A stretch of DNA of 8,314 nt, from positions 1 through 8,314 of IMG/VR virus record IMGVR_UViG_2778261154_000010; one strand, given 5' to 3'. Within the stretch, counting starts at the first letter, position 1. Each line of letters starts with the position of its first letter. The translations under genes were made by a program, and so were the position numbers. Below, one piece after another: positions 1,987-7,132 of the stretch. The notes beneath the pieces were generated by a model. It worked only from the letters and a program-made list of their open reading frames with translations, was not told where the DNA came from and ran no database searches. The DNA is from a virus (lineage: Duplodnaviria > Heunggongvirae > Uroviricota > Caudoviricetes).

Positions 1987-2718
1987 TTAATACCAGCGCT
2001 CCGCTACCAGTTTTTTCCAGTTCCGGGTATCCTGGTACGCAATATCAATACCGTGACTAAGGTTCATATCACGGAACCATTGACGCTGCTCCCAGATCTG
2101 CCATCTGCGACATTTCACTTTCTTCGGGATTACCAGGACTGAAAGAACACCAAGAACCGGTGCTTTCCCTGTATAACGTCTTCGGGCATAATCACGTCTG
2201 CATACTGCCTTTAGACCAAAGTAAACCCCTGACGGAAATACAATCACAGCGCCAGCCAGCAGAACCAGGAGTAATCGGCGAGAACCATGGATACTATCTG
2301 GAGTGAATTTGTTACCTTGTTCAATACGAATCCAGCTCTCATTTCGTTCATATGGACCGTGATTACCTTTGGGTTGGGTATCTGTTTCGGTCATTGGCTG
2401 GCAGTAAACAGGGACAGACGCAAGGAATTCAACGCAATCGCAGATCCTATCGCGGCCGAATTGATGCAAAAAATTAACCTTGCCAGAAAAGGGCTTCTCA
2501 ACATAGTGCAAATTAGCCCGCGTGATATCGCTGAACTCGAAAGAATGCTTAGCGCCAGGAAAGCGCGAAGACTCAGCCATGCCTTCATGGCATATGAGAA
2601 GGCATGCGAAAATTGCGGTAGTTATTCTGTTGATGGTCTTTACGAATTTCACTCCCCCGAGATTTTTATTAAAGGGGCTGAAAACCTTCTGGTTTTTCTC
2701 AAGCGTCGATGATTTCAT
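1987..2718 (-). CDS. Hypothetical 243-aa protein embedded in the early operon between ydaT-like and O; predicted hydrophobic segments near the C-terminus
   Basis: ATG at 2718 lies 11 nt after the ydaT-like stop with GAGGA 7 nt upstream. Its stop TAA is 2 nt before the O start, and O has no good SD of its own, which suggests translational coupling. Codon usage in 1987-2286 is E. coli-like (ctg, ccg, cgt, ggt). Caveat: the 5-prime 430 bp is antisense to a plausible plus-strand ORF, so only one of the two may be real. Confidence 0.5.
2287..2712 (+). CDS. Hypothetical 141-aa single-pass membrane protein, antisense to the early operon (possible moron or exclusion-type gene)
   Basis: ORF with a clean N-terminal TM helix ([24 protein letters not shown]) followed by NRDRRK and an amphipathic helical domain, so a very protein-like sequence. 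AGGAG at 2267-2271 is 15 nt from the ATG, which is poor spacing. It is the exact codon-aligned antisense frame of the 1987..2718 ORF, so it could be a shadow ORF. Confidence 0.35.
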   Translation: MDTIWSEFVTLFNTNPALISFIWTVITFGLGICFGHWLAVNRDRRKEFNAIADPIAAELMQKINLARKGLLNIVQISPRDIAELERMLSARKARRLSHAFMAYEKACENCGSYSVDGLYEFHSPEIFIKGAENLLVFLKRR

Positions 2719-2728
2719 TAATGCTTCC

Positions 2729-3154
2729 TCAATGTACAGCCACGGCATTTCCCGCCGGGCCACCACGATTCATCTGGTTGAAACCGGCGATCGCCACTGC
2801 GACAAAATCATCAGCATCTCTCACCAGTCGTTCCCGCGTCTCCACCAGCTCCCGAAAATAAGCTGAACTGTGGCTGCGCATTCTGGCCACCAGCAAAGGT
2901 GGCATTGCCTTTTCGATCGCTGGTAACAACGCCTGAATTTTTTCAACTGCATCAGGGGTGTCTTTCTCCACCCAGCGGAAAATTTTCTGAGTATTGCGAG
3001 CCAGGGCTTCCGGATGTGAATCGTCGTACAGCTCCGGAAACGTCATTCCCAGTTCAAAATACGCTTTGGTAATCTCTGCAGCCGGTACTTTCTCACCGTC
3101 CGGATGCGCCCAGGTATTCATCGCCATGCGGATGTGTTCATGCCTGATTTTCAT
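2729..3154 (-). CDS. ydaT: YdaT-like protein (cII-position gene of Rac-type prophages)
   Basis: 141-aa ORF (MKIRHEHIRMAMNTWAHPDGEK...) immediately downstream of, and overlapping by 17 nt, the Cro/YdaS-like gene. GGAG sits 7 nt upstream of the ATG at 3154. Size and position match the YdaS-YdaT pair of Rac-like prophages; the assignment is from memory. Confidence 0.7.
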   Translation of the reverse strand: MKIRHEHIRMAMNTWAHPDGEKVPAAEITKAYFELGMTFPELYDDSHPEALARNTQKIFRWVEKDTPDAVEKIQALLPAIEKAMPPLLVARMRSHSSAYFRELVETRERLVRDADDFVAVAIAGFNQMNRGGPAGNAVAVH

Positions 3155-3410
3155 GAATCAACTCCGGTTCATTTGATCTGTTAACCTTACATCCAACAGG
3201 TAAACCGTCGGTCGGGTTAGGGTATTTATCAGGGCGCAATTCATGCGGAGTCACTCCCCAGTCAAGCGCCTCACATGCAGGAATAACCTCCTCCGCAGGA
3301 ACTCGTTTTTTAAACCACCCACTTATGGTTTGTGGAGTTTTACCAAGACGACGCCCTAATTCTGATTGGCTCATTATCGACAGGATTTTTATTTGAGTAC
3401 TTTTTTGCAT
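3138..3410 (-). CDS. Cro/YdaS-like HTH DNA-binding protein (first gene of the early operon)
   Basis: ORF track 3138..3422 begins at a TTG. I prefer the ATG at 3410 (MQKSTQIKILSIMSQSELGRRLGKTPQTISGW...), which has GGAGGG 4 nt upstream. The HTH is near the N-terminus and an LRPD motif near the C-terminus is typical of YdaS/Cro-like proteins. Divergent from the repressor gene. Confidence 0.75.
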   Translation of the reverse strand: MQKSTQIKILSIMSQSELGRRLGKTPQTISGWFKKRVPAEEVIPACEALDWGVTPHELRPDKYPNPTDGLPVGCKVNRSNEPELIHENQA

Positions 3411-3536
3411 GTTTCCCTCCAAACTTTACGATGGTATCGATAATTACAAATTTAATTTTAAATTTCAACTTCTATTTGTAATGCCACTTATCAATTTTTT
3501 CTGTAGAATTGCGAGATTAGTTTTCGAGGGGTGGTG
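3411..3536. promoter_or_regulatory. Divergent promoter/operator region between the cro-like and repressor genes
   Basis: AT-rich 126-bp intergenic region. Contains the 15-mer AATTACAAATTTAAT (3442-3456), which recurs exactly at 4684-4698, plus a partial inverted partner ATTTGTAA (3475-3482). Candidate -10 TAGAAT at 3504-3509 for the repressor gene; candidate -35 TTGAAA on the minus strand for the cro-like gene. Confidence 0.55.
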
Positions 3537-3929
3537 ATGATCTTTGTAAAACGCCTTCAGCAGGTGTTGCAGGAATTGAATATAAACCAGTCAGAGCTGG
3601 GAAGACGTCTTGGTGTAAAACCCCAATCCGTGCAAGGTTGGTTGAAAGGCGTGATGCCAAGAATGGATAAACTGGAAAAATTAGCAGAGCTCTCACAACA
3701 TCCCGTCCATTGGTTCTTTATGGAAGAAGAAGCTCTCGGCGATAAGATGGCTGTATCCACTAATGACAACCAACCGCAACTTACAGAACAGCAACGAAAA
3801 ATCATATCGCTTTTAGATGAGTTACCTCAAAGCGACGCAGAGCAGATCATTCGAGATATGGAGCAAAAACGCGATTTCTATAAACGAAAACTTGAAGAGT
3901 TACTGCGGCAGAAAAACAAAACTGCCTGA
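3537..3929 (+). CDS. Prophage immunity repressor, XRE-family HTH (DicA/RacR-like)
   Basis: ORF track 3531..3929 begins at a GTG; the ATG at 3537 has GAGG 6 nt upstream. N-terminal HTH (QSELGRRLGVKPQSVQGWLKG) and a C-terminal helical region resembling DicA as recalled. Divergent from the cro-like gene. Confidence 0.8.
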   Translation: MIFVKRLQQVLQELNINQSELGRRLGVKPQSVQGWLKGVMPRMDKLEKLAELSQHPVHWFFMEEEALGDKMAVSTNDNQPQLTEQQRKIISLLDELPQSDAEQIIRDMEQKRDFYKRKLEELLRQKNKTA

Positions 3930-3975
3930 TGCGTTCCTTTTCTGGAACGAGTATCAGGCAAATGACTAGCAGATT

Positions 3976-4335
3976 TTATAATCCCACCAAGCTTTCCAAG
4001 GGGATACCAAATTGATTATGAAGACGGCGAATCATTGGTAACGTAAGGCTTCTGGTGCCATTCAACACCTCGTAAACCCGATTTTTTTTCCCAATTGCGG
4101 GTTCCAAATCTTTCACGGTCAGCCCCTGCTGTTCCATGCGAAATCTTATAGCTTCAATTGGGGATGGTGGCTCAATGGGATAATGTTTTTTTTCATATTC
4201 CTCTATTAGCAAACACATCACCTCAAAGAAATCCCCCTCAGGCGTGTTAATTTCCGGTTCATTGTCGAACATAGGCTCAACAGCACGCAACGCGGCTTCA
4301 TAATCTTGCTCTGTACGAATAGGTTTGATGTTCAT
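3976..4335 (-). CDS. higA: HigA-like antitoxin (XRE-family HTH) of a type II toxin-antitoxin pair
   Basis: 119-aa ORF starting 2 nt after the toxin stop, with GGAG 5 nt upstream. C-terminal HTH (GLTVKDLEPAIGKKNRVYEVLNGTRSLTLPMIRRLHNQFGI) typical of HigA antitoxins. Toxin-first gene order is typical of HigBA. Confidence 0.75.
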   Translation of the reverse strand: MNIKPIRTEQDYEAALRAVEPMFDNEPEINTPEGDFFEVMCLLIEEYEKKHYPIEPPSPIEAIRFRMEQQGLTVKDLEPAIGKKNRVYEVLNGTRSLTLPMIRRLHNQFGIPLESLVGL

Positions 4336-4337
4336 GC

Positions 4338-4640
4338 TTACTCCAGTTCGATGGTATCAGCATCAATGGCATCGTATTCCTTGTGGCTTCCGATGAATTT
4401 AACAAATACCCATCCTCGCTGATACGCAATTGCAACAATTAAACGGTAATGATTACCTTTTATGTTGAATACCACACGCCGGCTTTTCAATATACTAGCC
4501 GTTCGGTATTGTGCCTTAATGTCTGCCGGGCTTTTCCAGTCAGCTTTTGCTGCCTCATCCACCCATGCCCTTAGCGGTTGTTCTGCATCGGGATTCTCCG
4601 CCCAAAAATCCCTGAGTGTTTTAACTGAGATGATCTTCAT
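4338..4640 (-). CDS. higB: HigB-like toxin (RelE/ParE superfamily mRNA interferase)
   Basis: ORF track 4338..4685; I prefer the ATG at 4640 (MKIISVKTLRDFW..., 100 aa) because a sigma70-like promoter sits inside the upstream extension. The motif NIKGNHYRLIVAIAYQRGWVFVKFIGSHKEYD parallels the E. coli HigB C-terminal region as recalled. Confidence 0.7.
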   Translation of the reverse strand: MKIISVKTLRDFWAENPDAEQPLRAWVDEAAKADWKSPADIKAQYRTASILKSRRVVFNIKGNHYRLIVAIAYQRGWVFVKFIGSHKEYDAIDADTIELE

Positions 4641-4646
4641 AACTGC

Positions 4647-4675
4647 ATGATAGTCCCATTTTGGGACTAATGCAA
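4647..4675 (-). promoter_or_regulatory. Putative higBA promoter with a palindromic operator in the spacer
   Basis: Minus strand reads TTGCAT - 17 nt - TATCAT, with the perfect inverted repeat TAGTCCCA-AAA-TGGGACTA (4651-4669) filling the spacer. The -10 ends 6 nt before the ATG at 4640, implying a leaderless or near-leaderless toxin mRNA. Confidence 0.5.
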
Positions 4676-4683
4676 TCGTTCGC

Positions 4684-4743
4684 AATTACAAATTTAATAA
4701 TAAATATATTGACCAATTAAATTTTAATTTGTAGATTGTATCC
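4684..4743 (+). promoter_or_regulatory. Putative early-left (dicB-operon, Pb-like) promoter with repressor operators
   Basis: -35 TTGACC (4709-4714), 17-bp spacer, -10 TAGATT (4732-4737). The 15-mer AATTACAAATTTAAT (4684-4698) lies just upstream of the -35 and its degenerate inverted partner (ATTAAATTTTAATTTGTA) fills the spacer. Confidence 0.55.
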
Positions 4744-4912
4744 ATCAACCCACCCCGCCCCACAGAACGCAGGGCAATACTTCGAGTTACCAGGCAGTGG
4801 TCAGGGGTTAAGTAGCCAGCCCGAGGCGTAAGAACATGACGGCAGGGTTCAAATTTTGCAGTGCAGCAGGTTTTAGTTCCGCCACCCGGCGTTAAGGGGA
4901 AATGAGGTCAAC

Positions 4913-5068
4913 ATGAATACTATCGATCTTGGCAACAACGAATCTCTGGTATGTGGCGTGTTCCCCAACCAGGATGGAACGTTCACCGCCATGACTTATA
5001 CCAAAAGCAAAACGTTTAAAACCGAAGCTGGCGCGCGTCGCTGGCTGGAAAGAAACTCAGGTGAGTGA
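4913..5068 (+). CDS. ydfA: YdfA-like small protein (51 aa)
   Basis: ATG at 4913 with GAGG 5 nt upstream; MNTIDLGNNESLVCGVFPNQDGTFTAMTYTKSKTFKTEAGARRWLERNSGE. Size and position as first gene of a ydfABC-dicF-dicB operon as in Qin; below the ORF-track length cutoff. Confidence 0.7.
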   Translation: MNTIDLGNNESLVCGVFPNQDGTFTAMTYTKSKTFKTEAGARRWLERNSGE

Positions 5069-5069
5069 T

Positions 5070-5198
5070 ATGGATTTCGACACAATCATGGAAAAGGCTT
5101 ACGAAGAATACTTCGAAGGCCTTGCCGAAGGCGAAGAAGCTCTCAGCTTCAGCGAATTTAAACAGGCGCTTTCCAGTTCGGCAAAATCTAACGGCTGA
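5070..5198 (+). CDS. ydfB: YdfB-like small protein (42 aa)
   Basis: ATG at 5070, 1 nt after the ydfA stop, with AGGTGA 6 nt upstream; MDFDTIMEKAYEEYFEGLAEGEEALSFSEFKQALSSSAKSNG. The ORF track instead shows a 90-aa ORF in another frame (5065..5337), which I reject. Confidence 0.7.
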   Translation: MDFDTIMEKAYEEYFEGLAEGEEALSFSEFKQALSSSAKSNG

Positions 5199-5226
5199 TA
5201 AGCGAAACAGCACGCGAGGAATCAGT

Positions 5227-5337
5227 ATGCAGAAACGAGAACCCGTCATCATCGCGCCAGACTATACCGATGATGAACTTTATGAGTGGATTTTGGCGGC
5301 ATCAGTTTCATTGCTGGCTGATGTCCGCCCTTTTTAA
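5227..5337 (+). CDS. YdfC-like short ORF (36 aa) whose 3-prime end reads through the DicF-like sRNA sequence
   Basis: ATG at 5227 with GAGGA 6 nt upstream; MQKREPVIIAPDYTDDELYEW.... The stop TAA lies in the terminator T-tract. Shorter than K-12 YdfC as I recall it, and the tail may be fortuitous translation of the sRNA region. Confidence 0.4.
   Translation: MQKREPVIIAPDYTDDELYEWILAASVSLLADVRPF
5279..5335 (+). ncRNA. dicF: DicF-like small RNA (cell-division inhibitor sRNA of dicB-type operons), divergent variant
   Basis: The core GGCGGCATCAGTTTCATTGCTGGCTGATGTCCGCCCTTTTT closely resembles K-12 DicF as recalled, and the following AAAGTGAATTTTGTGATG..GGTGAATGCGGCT.AGCGCACGCGG also resembles the K-12 downstream sequence. 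The 5-prime end is set by processing and is approximate. Confidence 0.7.
5295..5335 (+). terminator. Rho-independent terminator forming the DicF 3-prime end
   Basis: Stem GGCGG-c-ATCAG (5295-5305) pairs with CTGAT-gt-CCGCC (5318-5329), leaving a 12-nt loop, followed by CTTTTT (5330-5335). Confidence 0.65.
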
Positions 5338-5619
5338 AGTGAATTTTGTGATGCGGTGAATGCGGCTAAGCGCACGCGGCACAGTTAAAAGTCATGTTAG
5401 TCCTTATTGTTTTGGGTGGGAAAGCCGACTGTAATTGTTAACTGGTTAACGTCACCTGGAGGCACTAGGCACCGCATCAACAAAGTTCACTTCGGTGATG
5501 AAAGGAAAGAGAAAATGTTGAATGTAGCTATTGAAAACCAGAACGGGTGGAATTATAGTGCACCTGCACCTCATAAAACGGGTGCCGGGATTAGCACCCC
5601 GAAAGTTACTCGAGCGCAT

Positions 5620-5642
5620 AACCGCGCTGAAGCGGTTTTTTT
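5620..5642 (+). terminator. Short hairpin plus T7 tract; weak candidate intrinsic terminator or attenuator
   Basis: AACCGC-gctgaa-GCGGTT followed by a run of seven T (5636-5642). The stem is only 6 bp, so function is uncertain. Confidence 0.3.
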
Positions 5643-5808
5643 ATGCGTAATGCACAGCTACATTCAAATTATGGTGAGGCGTGCGGGGCAGCCGCAAGGC
5701 TGGCCGGGTTCTCGAGTGACCGGTAGTGCTAACCCTGTGCGTCTCACCACCCATGAGATTAGCACCTCTGGTGGTGAGTTAATTAACTTATCACTTGAGG
5801 ATGTCATT

Positions 5809-6357
5809 ATGGCTACTACCCTTTCTCACCCTGACGTAACCATCGAAAATGGTCGCGCCGTCACTACTTCTATTTCGATTGCTGAGTTTTTTGGCAAGCA
5901 GCATCACCATGTTGTTCAAAAAATAGAATCCCTCGAATGTTCTGAACTATTTTTAACCAGCAACTTTTCGCGGGTTAAATTTGAACACCGCGGCAATTCT
6001 TATAACGCCTACCAAATCACCAAAAACGGCTTCGTTTTCCTGGTGATGGGCTTCACTGGCAAAAAAGCCGCTGCATTCAAAGAGGCATACATTGCTGAGT
6101 TCGACCGCATGGAGGCCGAACTGCGCCAGAATAACACCCCACCTGCTGACAAGATGATTCCGGGTGATGGTCGCACTCTGGTTGTTCACTTCGACAAATT
6201 CGGCAATGTCGAATTCACCGAAACCGTTCCTGATGGCGCACTGGTCTGTACCCTGGAGACTTTCCGGTTTTATCTGGAAAAACAGGGATGGACTCTTGTT
6301 AACCGGGGCGCAATTAAAAATATGACTGTGGAACAATTACTCAAAATTCATTGTTGA
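5809..6357 (+). CDS. rha: Phage regulatory protein Rha (pRha domain) inserted between DicF and dicB
   Basis: MATTLSHPDVTIENGRAVTTSISIAEFFGKQHHHVVQKIESL...FVFLVMGFTGKKAAAFKEAYIAEFDRMEAEL matches the Rha-family N-terminal domain as recalled. GAGG sits 8 nt upstream of the ATG at 5809. The ORF track extends the frame to 5407, but the extension is not protein-like. Confidence 0.75.
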   Translation: MATTLSHPDVTIENGRAVTTSISIAEFFGKQHHHVVQKIESLECSELFLTSNFSRVKFEHRGNSYNAYQITKNGFVFLVMGFTGKKAAAFKEAYIAEFDRMEAELRQNNTPPADKMIPGDGRTLVVHFDKFGNVEFTETVPDGALVCTLETFRFYLEKQGWTLVNRGAIKNMTVEQLLKIHC

Positions 6358-7102: not shown

Positions 7103-7132
7103 AAAAAAAGAAAGCCTGCACACTGTGCAGGC
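7103..7132 (-). terminator. Hairpin with a U-tract on the minus strand: intrinsic terminator oriented against the flanking plus-strand genes
   Basis: Perfect 8-bp stem GCCTGCAC / GTGCAGGC (7114-7121 and 7125-7132) with a 3-nt loop. On the minus strand it is followed by TTTCTTTTTTT; on the plus strand no T-tract follows it. Confidence 0.4.

Follow-up and report, generated by a model that had tools for sequence, protein, structure and literature searches.

We analyzed a stretch of 8,314 nucleotides (nt) from the IMG/VR virus record IMGVR_UViG_2778261154_000010 (hereafter the window; all positions are window coordinates), in which a higB–higA cassette lies on the minus strand between a prophage repressor gene and the early-left promoter. 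With a probability of about 0.75, this cassette is an intact two-gene type II toxin–antitoxin (TA) unit of the Escherichia coli K-12 HigB/HigA family, and forms a self-contained moron within the immunity module of a lambdoid, Qin/Rac-like prophage. The toxin gene is preceded by a promoter with a palindrome in its spacer, an arrangement conserved among homologues, and is very probably expressed from a leaderless mRNA. RefSeq already lists the genes as a HigB-family TA pair, and both this kind of element and this kind of location are known. The family-wide leaderless promoter/operator design, deduced here from sequence comparison, is a modest new observation.

Identity and Layout of higB and higA

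The two genes of the cassette are:

4338–4640, minus strand: higB, 100 amino acids (aa), ATG at 4640–4638 and TAA at 4340–4338; RelE superfamily, HigB_toxin (PF09907) family; same start in RefSeq/PGAP.
3976–4335, minus strand: higA, 119 aa, with a C-terminal Xre-type helix-turn-helix (HTH; Pfam HTH_3), without a ChAD tail and without a peptidase domain.

HigB matched the Pfam PF09907 model over positions 1–74 of 74 (E = 5e-33), and its closest PDB entries were the K-12/Shigella HigB structures (5IFG, 5YCL, and 6KML; E about 1e-7 to 3e-7). HigA was closest to the HigA chains 5ifg_B/5ycl_A (E about 1e-9 to 2e-9). No relative of either protein other than HigB/HigA from E. coli K-12 and Shigella has a solved structure in the PDB. 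In PADLOC, HigB matched PD-Lambda-2_A (E = 1.5e-40), and HigA matched PD-Lambda-2_B (E = 1.3e-42), covering positions 1–119 of 402 only. Since NCBIfam gave no match for HigB or HigA, the TA protein names rest on Pfam, PDB, and PADLOC. PGAP labels higB as a 'type II toxin-antitoxin system HigB family toxin' and higA as an 'HTH domain protein'. The putative active-site residues (F58, N59, G62, N63, R66, H86, Y89, and D90) are at least 95% conserved in a 76-sequence alignment that includes K-12 HigB, and all are present here. We take the Proteus/Rts1 HigB to belong to a different family (PF05015), the HigB described here being of the K-12 type.

The higB stop codon is separated from the higA start by 2 nt, giving a tightly coupled bicistronic unit in the toxin-first order. 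The original prediction of a toxin-first HigB/HigA pair on the strand opposite the repressor was borne out by the match to PF09907 and the structural relatives (5ifg/5ycl/6kml).

Promoter and Palindrome Upstream of higB

Three elements precede the higB start codon:

4670–4675, minus strand: −35 hexamer TTGCAT, by direct reading; 3/6 match to the consensus.
4647–4652, minus strand: −10 hexamer TATCAT, 17-nt spacer from the −35, 6 nt (gcagtt) to the ATG.
4651–4669: perfect 8-3-8 palindrome TAGTCCCA-N3-TGGGACTA, the predicted HigA/HigBA operator, which fills the spacer and overlaps the first two bases of the −10.

The promoter TTGCAT-17-TATCAT, the 8-3-8 palindrome, and the 6-nt distance to the ATG are all as originally described. 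From this geometry, the higB transcript is predicted to start at the A of 4640 or within 1 nt of it. The promoter and the palindrome, each taken alone, are not significant. The promoter matches the consensus at 8/12 positions, a level reached by chance about once per 270 nt of strand in the window, and it falls below the scanner threshold and is unlisted. Perfect palindromes with arms of at least 8 nt number four in the window, compared with ~1.06 expected; the exact operator pattern occurs once. The significance of both elements therefore rests on their conservation in homologues.

The homologue scan, with one genome per species, recovered 80 loci whose toxins were 52–88% identical, spanning the Enterobacteriaceae, many Betaproteobacteria, Verrucomicrobia, Chloroflexi, Cyanobacteria, Bacteroidota, and others. 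Upstream regions were counted at 71 usable loci for higB and 69 for higA. The homologues share a common order: TTGnnn, a palindrome in the 17-nt spacer, TAnnnT, 5–7 nt, and the start codon. In most of them, the palindrome core (A/G)TCCCA-N3-TGGGAC is centered 20–21 nt before the start codon, and the TA of TAnnnT directly follows GGGAC. TAnnnT ended 5, 6, or 7 nt before the start in 10, 29, and 11 loci, respectively (50/71), against a background of 1.16 loci per position (~3.5 expected). A tetramer resembling a Shine–Dalgarno (SD) sequence was found at −18 to −4 before higB in 4/71 loci, versus 40/69 before higA. Additionally, 30/71 loci showed an in-frame stop codon at most 30 nt upstream of higB, often the TAA/TAG of the −10 itself. 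These stops exclude a longer higB open reading frame (ORF). A 115-aa ORF from a TTG at 4685 in the window was rejected on the same ground, and because PGAP and all homologues start at the ATG.

The same geometry was found in copies with different surroundings. The allele of E. coli O26:H11 11368 reads TTGCAT-17-TACTAT-6-ATG with an intact palindrome core, and the promoter/palindrome/start geometry recurs in the copies on the chromosomes of Leclercia, Kosakonia, Trabulsiella, and others. A 79.6% identical copy in E. coli JNEC-KY176 lies behind the antiterminator Q of another prophage, with both flanks unrelated; its promoter is TTTACA-17(AGTCCCAAAACGGGAC)-TAGTAT and its palindrome AGTCCCAAAACGGGACT. 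Homologues from unrelated genomic contexts thus uphold the proposal that the cassette has a promoter of its own whose spacer holds a palindrome. We also noted that the KY176 copy (3357–3720 of its extracted locus) sits in the slot that holds the stx genes in Stx phages.

In distant clades, both palindrome arms have changed jointly, to GCTCCC-N5-GGGAGC (centered at −24) or GTTACC-N3-GGTAAC (centered at about −28, range −24 to −31). Such a joint change between clades is the behavior expected of an operator co-evolving with its repressor. The conserved position and the clade-wise co-variation fit the prediction that the palindrome is the HigA operator.

A Probably Leaderless Toxin Cistron

The comparison strongly backs the prediction of a leaderless toxin mRNA, through the placement of TAnnnT, the scarcity of SD-like tetramers before higB, and the in-frame stops. 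The leaderless layout appears to be the rule in this HigB clade, not in the wider family, and the higB start in the window is very likely leaderless.

Several observations weigh against this assignment. The −35 hexamer is weak, with only half of the consensus positions matched, and the promoter score is sub-threshold. The KY176 copy carries an 18-nt insert with an AGAGGA SD motif between the −10 and the ATG. The higBA leaders of K-12 and of phage BP-4795 measure ~33 nt and ~25 nt, respectively, and K-12 higBA was accordingly dropped as a leaderless precedent, the BP-4795 copy being likewise led. Leaderless mRNAs are rare in E. coli, though they are translated; lambda cI is the textbook case.

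These leaders in K-12, KY176, and BP-4795 would also fit a working promoter lying further upstream of higB in the window, such as TTGATG-16-TAAAAT (minus strand, 4748–4721), in which case higB would have a conventional leader of ~75 nt, with the palindrome acting there as a roadblock or as an RNA element. The scanner does list this upstream match (9/12) and not the proximal promoter (8/12). However, AT-rich DNA yields many chance promoter matches (7 found versus 4.1 expected), and the upstream DNA is phage-operator sequence that is absent from all other homologues, whereas the proximal geometry is kept in 50/71 loci. No SD sequence precedes higB either way. We consider such a conventional leader very unlikely and favor the proximal promoter with a leaderless start. 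Full-text literature searches yielded no publication on this cassette and none on a leaderless HigB outside mycobacteria.

Translation of higA, Termination, and Predicted Regulation

Two further elements concern the expression of the operon:

4341–4344, minus strand: GGAG SD sequence of higA, within the last higB codons (ctGGAGtaagcATG).
3909–3960, minus strand: stem-loop 3923–3960 followed by GUUUUGUUUUU (3922–3912), the probable intrinsic terminator of higBA; it overlaps the 3' end of the convergent repressor gene.

In all eight enterobacterial copies aligned, the SD element of higA is kept as CTGGAGTA, the Silvania copy having the variant CGGGAG. The stem-loop folded with a ΔG of −23.2/−23.9 kcal/mol (z = −4.6/−5.1), and 0/200 shuffled sequences were equally stable. 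The simple terminator scan did not list it. Because the promoter/terminator scan listed neither the higB promoter nor the terminator, we relied on direct reading, folding, and conservation.

These elements suggest the following scheme. Transcription from the sigma-70 promoter would begin no more than 1 nt from the A of the higB ATG, and the resulting leaderless HigB mRNA would be inefficiently translated in E. coli. Translation of higA would proceed from the good GGAG site in the end of higB, yielding an antitoxin excess despite the toxin-first order. Since the toxin cistron lacks a ribosome-binding site and the antitoxin cistron has the conserved GGAG, HigB synthesis would be capped relative to that of HigA. 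A HigA dimer or the HigBA complex would bind AGTCCCA-N3-TGGGACT in the spacer and repress the operon; because this operator takes up the spacer and reaches the −10, HigA bound there would keep RNA polymerase off the promoter. The transcript would terminate at the hairpin and U-tract at 3960–3909. Free HigB would cleave ribosome-bound mRNA.

The hairpin at 3923–3960 lies between the convergent repressor gene and higA, with a U-tract on the minus strand only. Owing to this polarity, repressor transcripts may read through into antisense higA/higB, which may provide another possible route of coupling between the prophage repressor and the TA operon.

Prophage Setting and Distribution

The repressor gene convergent with the cassette is:

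3537–3929, plus strand: prophage repressor, Pfam HTH_3, PGAP coding sequence (CDS), a distant DicA relative convergent with higA.

Window positions 3400–5250 (1851 bases) match the E. coli CFSAN029787 chromosome at 100% identity, as they do five other complete genomes. According to the RefSeq annotation of CFSAN029787, the gene order is that of a lambdoid prophage, beginning on the minus strand with O/P-like replication genes, a YdaT-family gene, and a Cro/YdaS-like regulator. The HTH repressor (plus strand) and higA and higB (minus strand) follow, and the plus-strand genes beyond higB are DUF1391/ydfA, ydfB, a ydfC fragment, rha, recE, gam, xis, and int.

The cassette had originally been described as inserted into the dicA–ydfA gap of K-12 Qin, given as about 100 base pairs (bp). 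This part of the description was not supported. The actual gap in Qin is 166 bp, and the alignment of the window with Qin shows homology beginning only ~40 nt before ydfA, which rules out Qin DNA as the flanks of the cassette. The repressor, both operator clusters, and the early-left promoter with its leader are unrelated to Qin, and the repressor scored 49.9 bits against the NCBIfam DicA model, for which the cut-off is 101. The immunity type is thus a different one. Moreover, the repressor allele was not found without the cassette among 5426 complete E. coli genomes, and no empty or alternative-cargo site for this immunity type was seen there. Because no empty site exists among the genomes examined, an insertion event is not demonstrable.

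The cassette was present in 149/5426 of these genomes. The repressor allele was full length in 148 genomes, always with the cassette adjoining. In O26:H11 11368, the repressor–higBA–operator block (95% identical) is joined to other early-left genes. Across these genomes, the block behaves as one heteroimmune immunity module, of which higBA is a fixed part. The host prophages carry pseudogenes, namely a split DUF1627 and partial ydfC and recE in CFSAN029787 and a frameshifted integrase in O26:H11 11368, and these host prophages are probably defective.

A decaying host prophage, together with the loss of a distal operator (described below), might suggest that the cassette is an inactive remnant, with intact ORFs that no longer form a working TA pair. 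We regard this as extremely unlikely: both ORFs are full length with all invariant residues kept, the cassette is 95–100% identical in 148/149 carrier genomes with the promoter geometry retained, and the coupling SD sequence is conserved.

The closest relatives of the cassette (83–88% aa identity) lie amid ordinary metabolic genes in Kosakonia, Leclercia, and Trabulsiella, and the homology with these chromosomal relatives covers exactly the stretch that starts in the promoter region and ends with the stop codon of higA. Judged from these sequence comparisons, the cassette is of foreign origin; its base composition showed no foreign signature. Among sequenced phages, tblastn found no close copy, with all 44 matches below 60% identity. 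No Rfam match was obtained within the cassette.

Outside the immunity region, Rfam identified the Hfq-binding small RNA isrK (5566–5642, plus strand; 68.5 bits) and a C4 antisense RNA (5667–5754, plus strand; 78.6 bits), both within the 5' part of the annotated Rha-family CDS (~5514–6356). Their location within this CDS points to an antirepressor control unit of the P1/Gifsy-like kind; the CDS may also be annotated as too long. A perfect palindrome, GCCTGCACACTGTGCAGGC, with arms of 8–9 nt, was found at 7114–7132 in the recE-side region.

Presumed Repressor Operators and Possible Coupling to Lysogeny

The DNA between the higB promoter and the early-left genes contains:

4684–4704: repressor operator copy, OL2-like (AATTACAAATTTAAT...), between the divergent higB and early-left promoters.
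4709–4737, plus strand: early-left (PL-like) promoter TTGACC-17-TAGATT, from the promoter scan.
4716–4734: second operator copy, across the early-left spacer and −10; inverted repeat with 3445–3461, 88% complementary.

The 15-nt sequence AATTACAAATTTAAT at 4684–4698 is identical to 3442–3456 in the cro/repressor intergenic region, which confirms the repeat behind the repressor operator copy proposed to adjoin the cassette. The original suggestion that repressor occupancy might influence higBA transcription is an argument from this adjacency. Four TACAAAT/ATTTGTA half-sites (3443–3482 and 4684–4736) are the presumed repressor operators; one pair, spaced by 30 bp, lies in the cro/repressor intergenic region, and the other, spaced by 40 bp, flanks the early-left −35.

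Relative to the higB start, the operator core ATTTGTA occupies −53 to −47. In 6/7 of the closest chromosomal homologues, a second HigA-type palindrome is centered at −50; it lies 30 bp farther upstream than the first, or 29 bp in Silvania. Of the two, the window carries only the proximal palindrome, and its −50 position holds the repressor operator core. On capture, the repressor operator might have replaced the distal HigA operator, so that higBA transcription would report lysogeny, being repressed or stimulated from ~50 bp upstream. The core sits exactly where the chromosomal homologues have their second palindrome, and 33 bp separate the two divergent promoters between which the operator lies. 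Nevertheless, whatever DNA was attached directly before the −35 would come to lie at −50, and the match may be a coincidence; the distal palindrome is likewise missing from the KY176 copy, which has no operator there. In addition, all 148 copies share a single ancestry and provide no independent replication of the arrangement. We therefore consider it quite unlikely that the TA operon is wired to the prophage repressor in this way.

A broader proposal is tentative and, taken as a whole, doubtful. The HigBA clade (Proteobacteria, Chloroflexi, Cyanobacteria, and others) may have a built-in design in which the transcription start is the toxin start and the operator lies in the spacer, with leaderless translation keeping the operon antitoxin-rich. 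Toxin output could then respond to conditions that favor leaderless translation, such as changes in initiation brought on by phages or stress, and in the prophage copy, replacement of the distal HigA operator at −50 by the repressor operator could link the TA operon to lysogeny.

Possible Role in the Prophage

The cI–N stretch is a hotspot of mosaic diversity and abortive-infection cargo, with lambda rexAB and BTP1 bstA as examples (PMC8585504, citing Degnan 2007). The cassette slot corresponds to this position: the repressor (3537–3929) is followed by the cassette (3976–4675), the operators and promoter (4684–4737), and then ydfA. The likeliest pay-off for the prophage would be an abortive-infection defense against other phages and/or prophage retention, and the suggestion that the cassette protects against phages or stabilizes the prophage fits the known biology of the site (PMC8585504; bioRxiv 10.1101/2024.02.24.581848).

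The cassette lacks the sensor parts of its proven defense relatives (ChAD tail, SecB-like chaperone, peptidase domain, and third gene), which speaks against a defense function. Because these phage-sensing parts of HigBAC and PD-lambda-2 are missing, a defense role is argued by analogy only; by position and kinship it is plausible, with a trigger that would necessarily be different.

The main alternative is that the cassette serves as an addiction or stabilization module with no anti-phage role, in which post-segregational killing retains a decaying prophage, or just its immunity module. The absence of the phage-sensing parts would also fit this alternative. Since the host prophage carries pseudogenes and looks defective, selection could be for addiction and not for defense, and the cassette was never found apart from the repressor allele in the 148 genomes. 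On the other side, proven defense cargo occupies the same site in related phages (PMC8585504; bioRxiv 10.1101/2024.02.24.581848), and near-identical cassettes are stable amid the chromosomal metabolic genes of other genera, so that a mobile element is not needed for maintenance of the cassette. We view pure addiction as possible but on the unlikely side, and the two roles are not mutually exclusive.

The cassette, read as a TA moron of the immunity module, adds a minimal two-gene HigBA to the cargo that lambdoid prophages of pathogenic E. coli (O26, O103, O111, and O121) carry at the rexAB position. If true, the leaderless toxin mRNA would be a simple answer to the need for antitoxin excess in toxin-first operons, and the few natural leaderless genes known in E. 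coli would gain a family. The general understanding of TA systems and prophage defense hotspots stays as it was.

Comparison with Known Systems

The K-12 HigB/HigA pair (YgjN/YgjM; 5IFG and 6KML; Shigella 5YCL) likewise combines a PF09907 toxin with an HTH_3 antitoxin in the toxin-first order. The motif F-N-x-x-G-N...R...H-x-x-Y-D is common to both toxins, and a CCA-N3-TGG-type palindrome adjoins a TATCAT −10 in K-12 as well. However, the identity between the two HigB proteins is low (phmmer E about 1e-7), the K-12 leader bears a second palindrome, K-12 HigA has 138 aa compared with 119 aa here, and the K-12 locus lies outside any prophage.

The rexAB and bstA genes share with the cassette the slot downstream of the repressor (PMC8585504). 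They encode unrelated proteins and use the promoter and strand of the repressor, whereas higBA is convergent with the repressor and predicted to be self-regulated.

A closer counterpart is found in BP-4795, where the order is cI, HigB (95 aa), HigA (218 aa), a third gene, and N. Its HigB/HigA are 42%/43% identical to the window pair, with the HigA alignment covering BP-4795 residues 9–120, and the third gene matched the PD-T4-9_C chaperone component (E = 3e-11). In H-19B-type Stx phages, tblastn found a 41%-identical HigB, one record being annotated as immunity region. The HigBAC-type system of BP-4795, with its SecB-like third gene, occupies 2501–3842 of the extracted locus. HigB matches also came from H-19B and many Stx1a phages, and in many Stx-phage records the matching region is unannotated or 'hypothetical'.

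The BP-4795 architecture corresponds to HigBAC of E. coli NT1F31, which lies downstream of cI at the rexAB site and aborts infection by lambda-vir and Bas25 (bioRxiv 10.1101/2024.02.24.581848). NT1F31 HigBAC senses the lambda tail protein gpV via its chaperone, for which gpV competes (bioRxiv 10.1101/2024.02.24.581848). The window cassette occupies the same repressor-to-early-left hotspot, but its HigA lacks the ChAD tail (~96 aa in HigBAC), and no SecB-like chaperone gene is present, higA being directly followed by the terminator and the convergent repressor gene. The gpV–chaperone sensing route consequently cannot apply here. HigBAC is also co-directional with the repressor, whereas the window higBA is on the opposite strand with its own promoter.

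PD-lambda-2 is a validated three-gene abortive anti-phage system in which B alone is toxic and A rescues (PMC9519451, Vassallo et al. 2022). HigB here matches A, and HigA matches the HigA-like N-terminal part of B. In contrast to PD-lambda-2, the B homologue in the window ends after 119/402 model positions, with no peptidase domain, and no C gene is present. The toxicity logic of PD-lambda-2, with B toxic and A the rescuer, cannot be assumed for the window pair.

Finally, PaaR2–PaaA2–ParE2, in the cryptic prophage CP-933P of E. coli O157:H7, includes a paaR2 mRNA shown experimentally to be leaderless (PMC8630535). Like the window cassette, it is a type II TA system within the immunity region of a YdaS/YdaT-type lambdoid prophage. 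The systems differ in that the ParE toxin family is unrelated and that the PaaA2–ParE2 pair is co-transcribed with and regulated by the cI-like repressor; moreover, the leaderless gene is the repressor in CP-933P, and not the toxin, as predicted for higB in the window.

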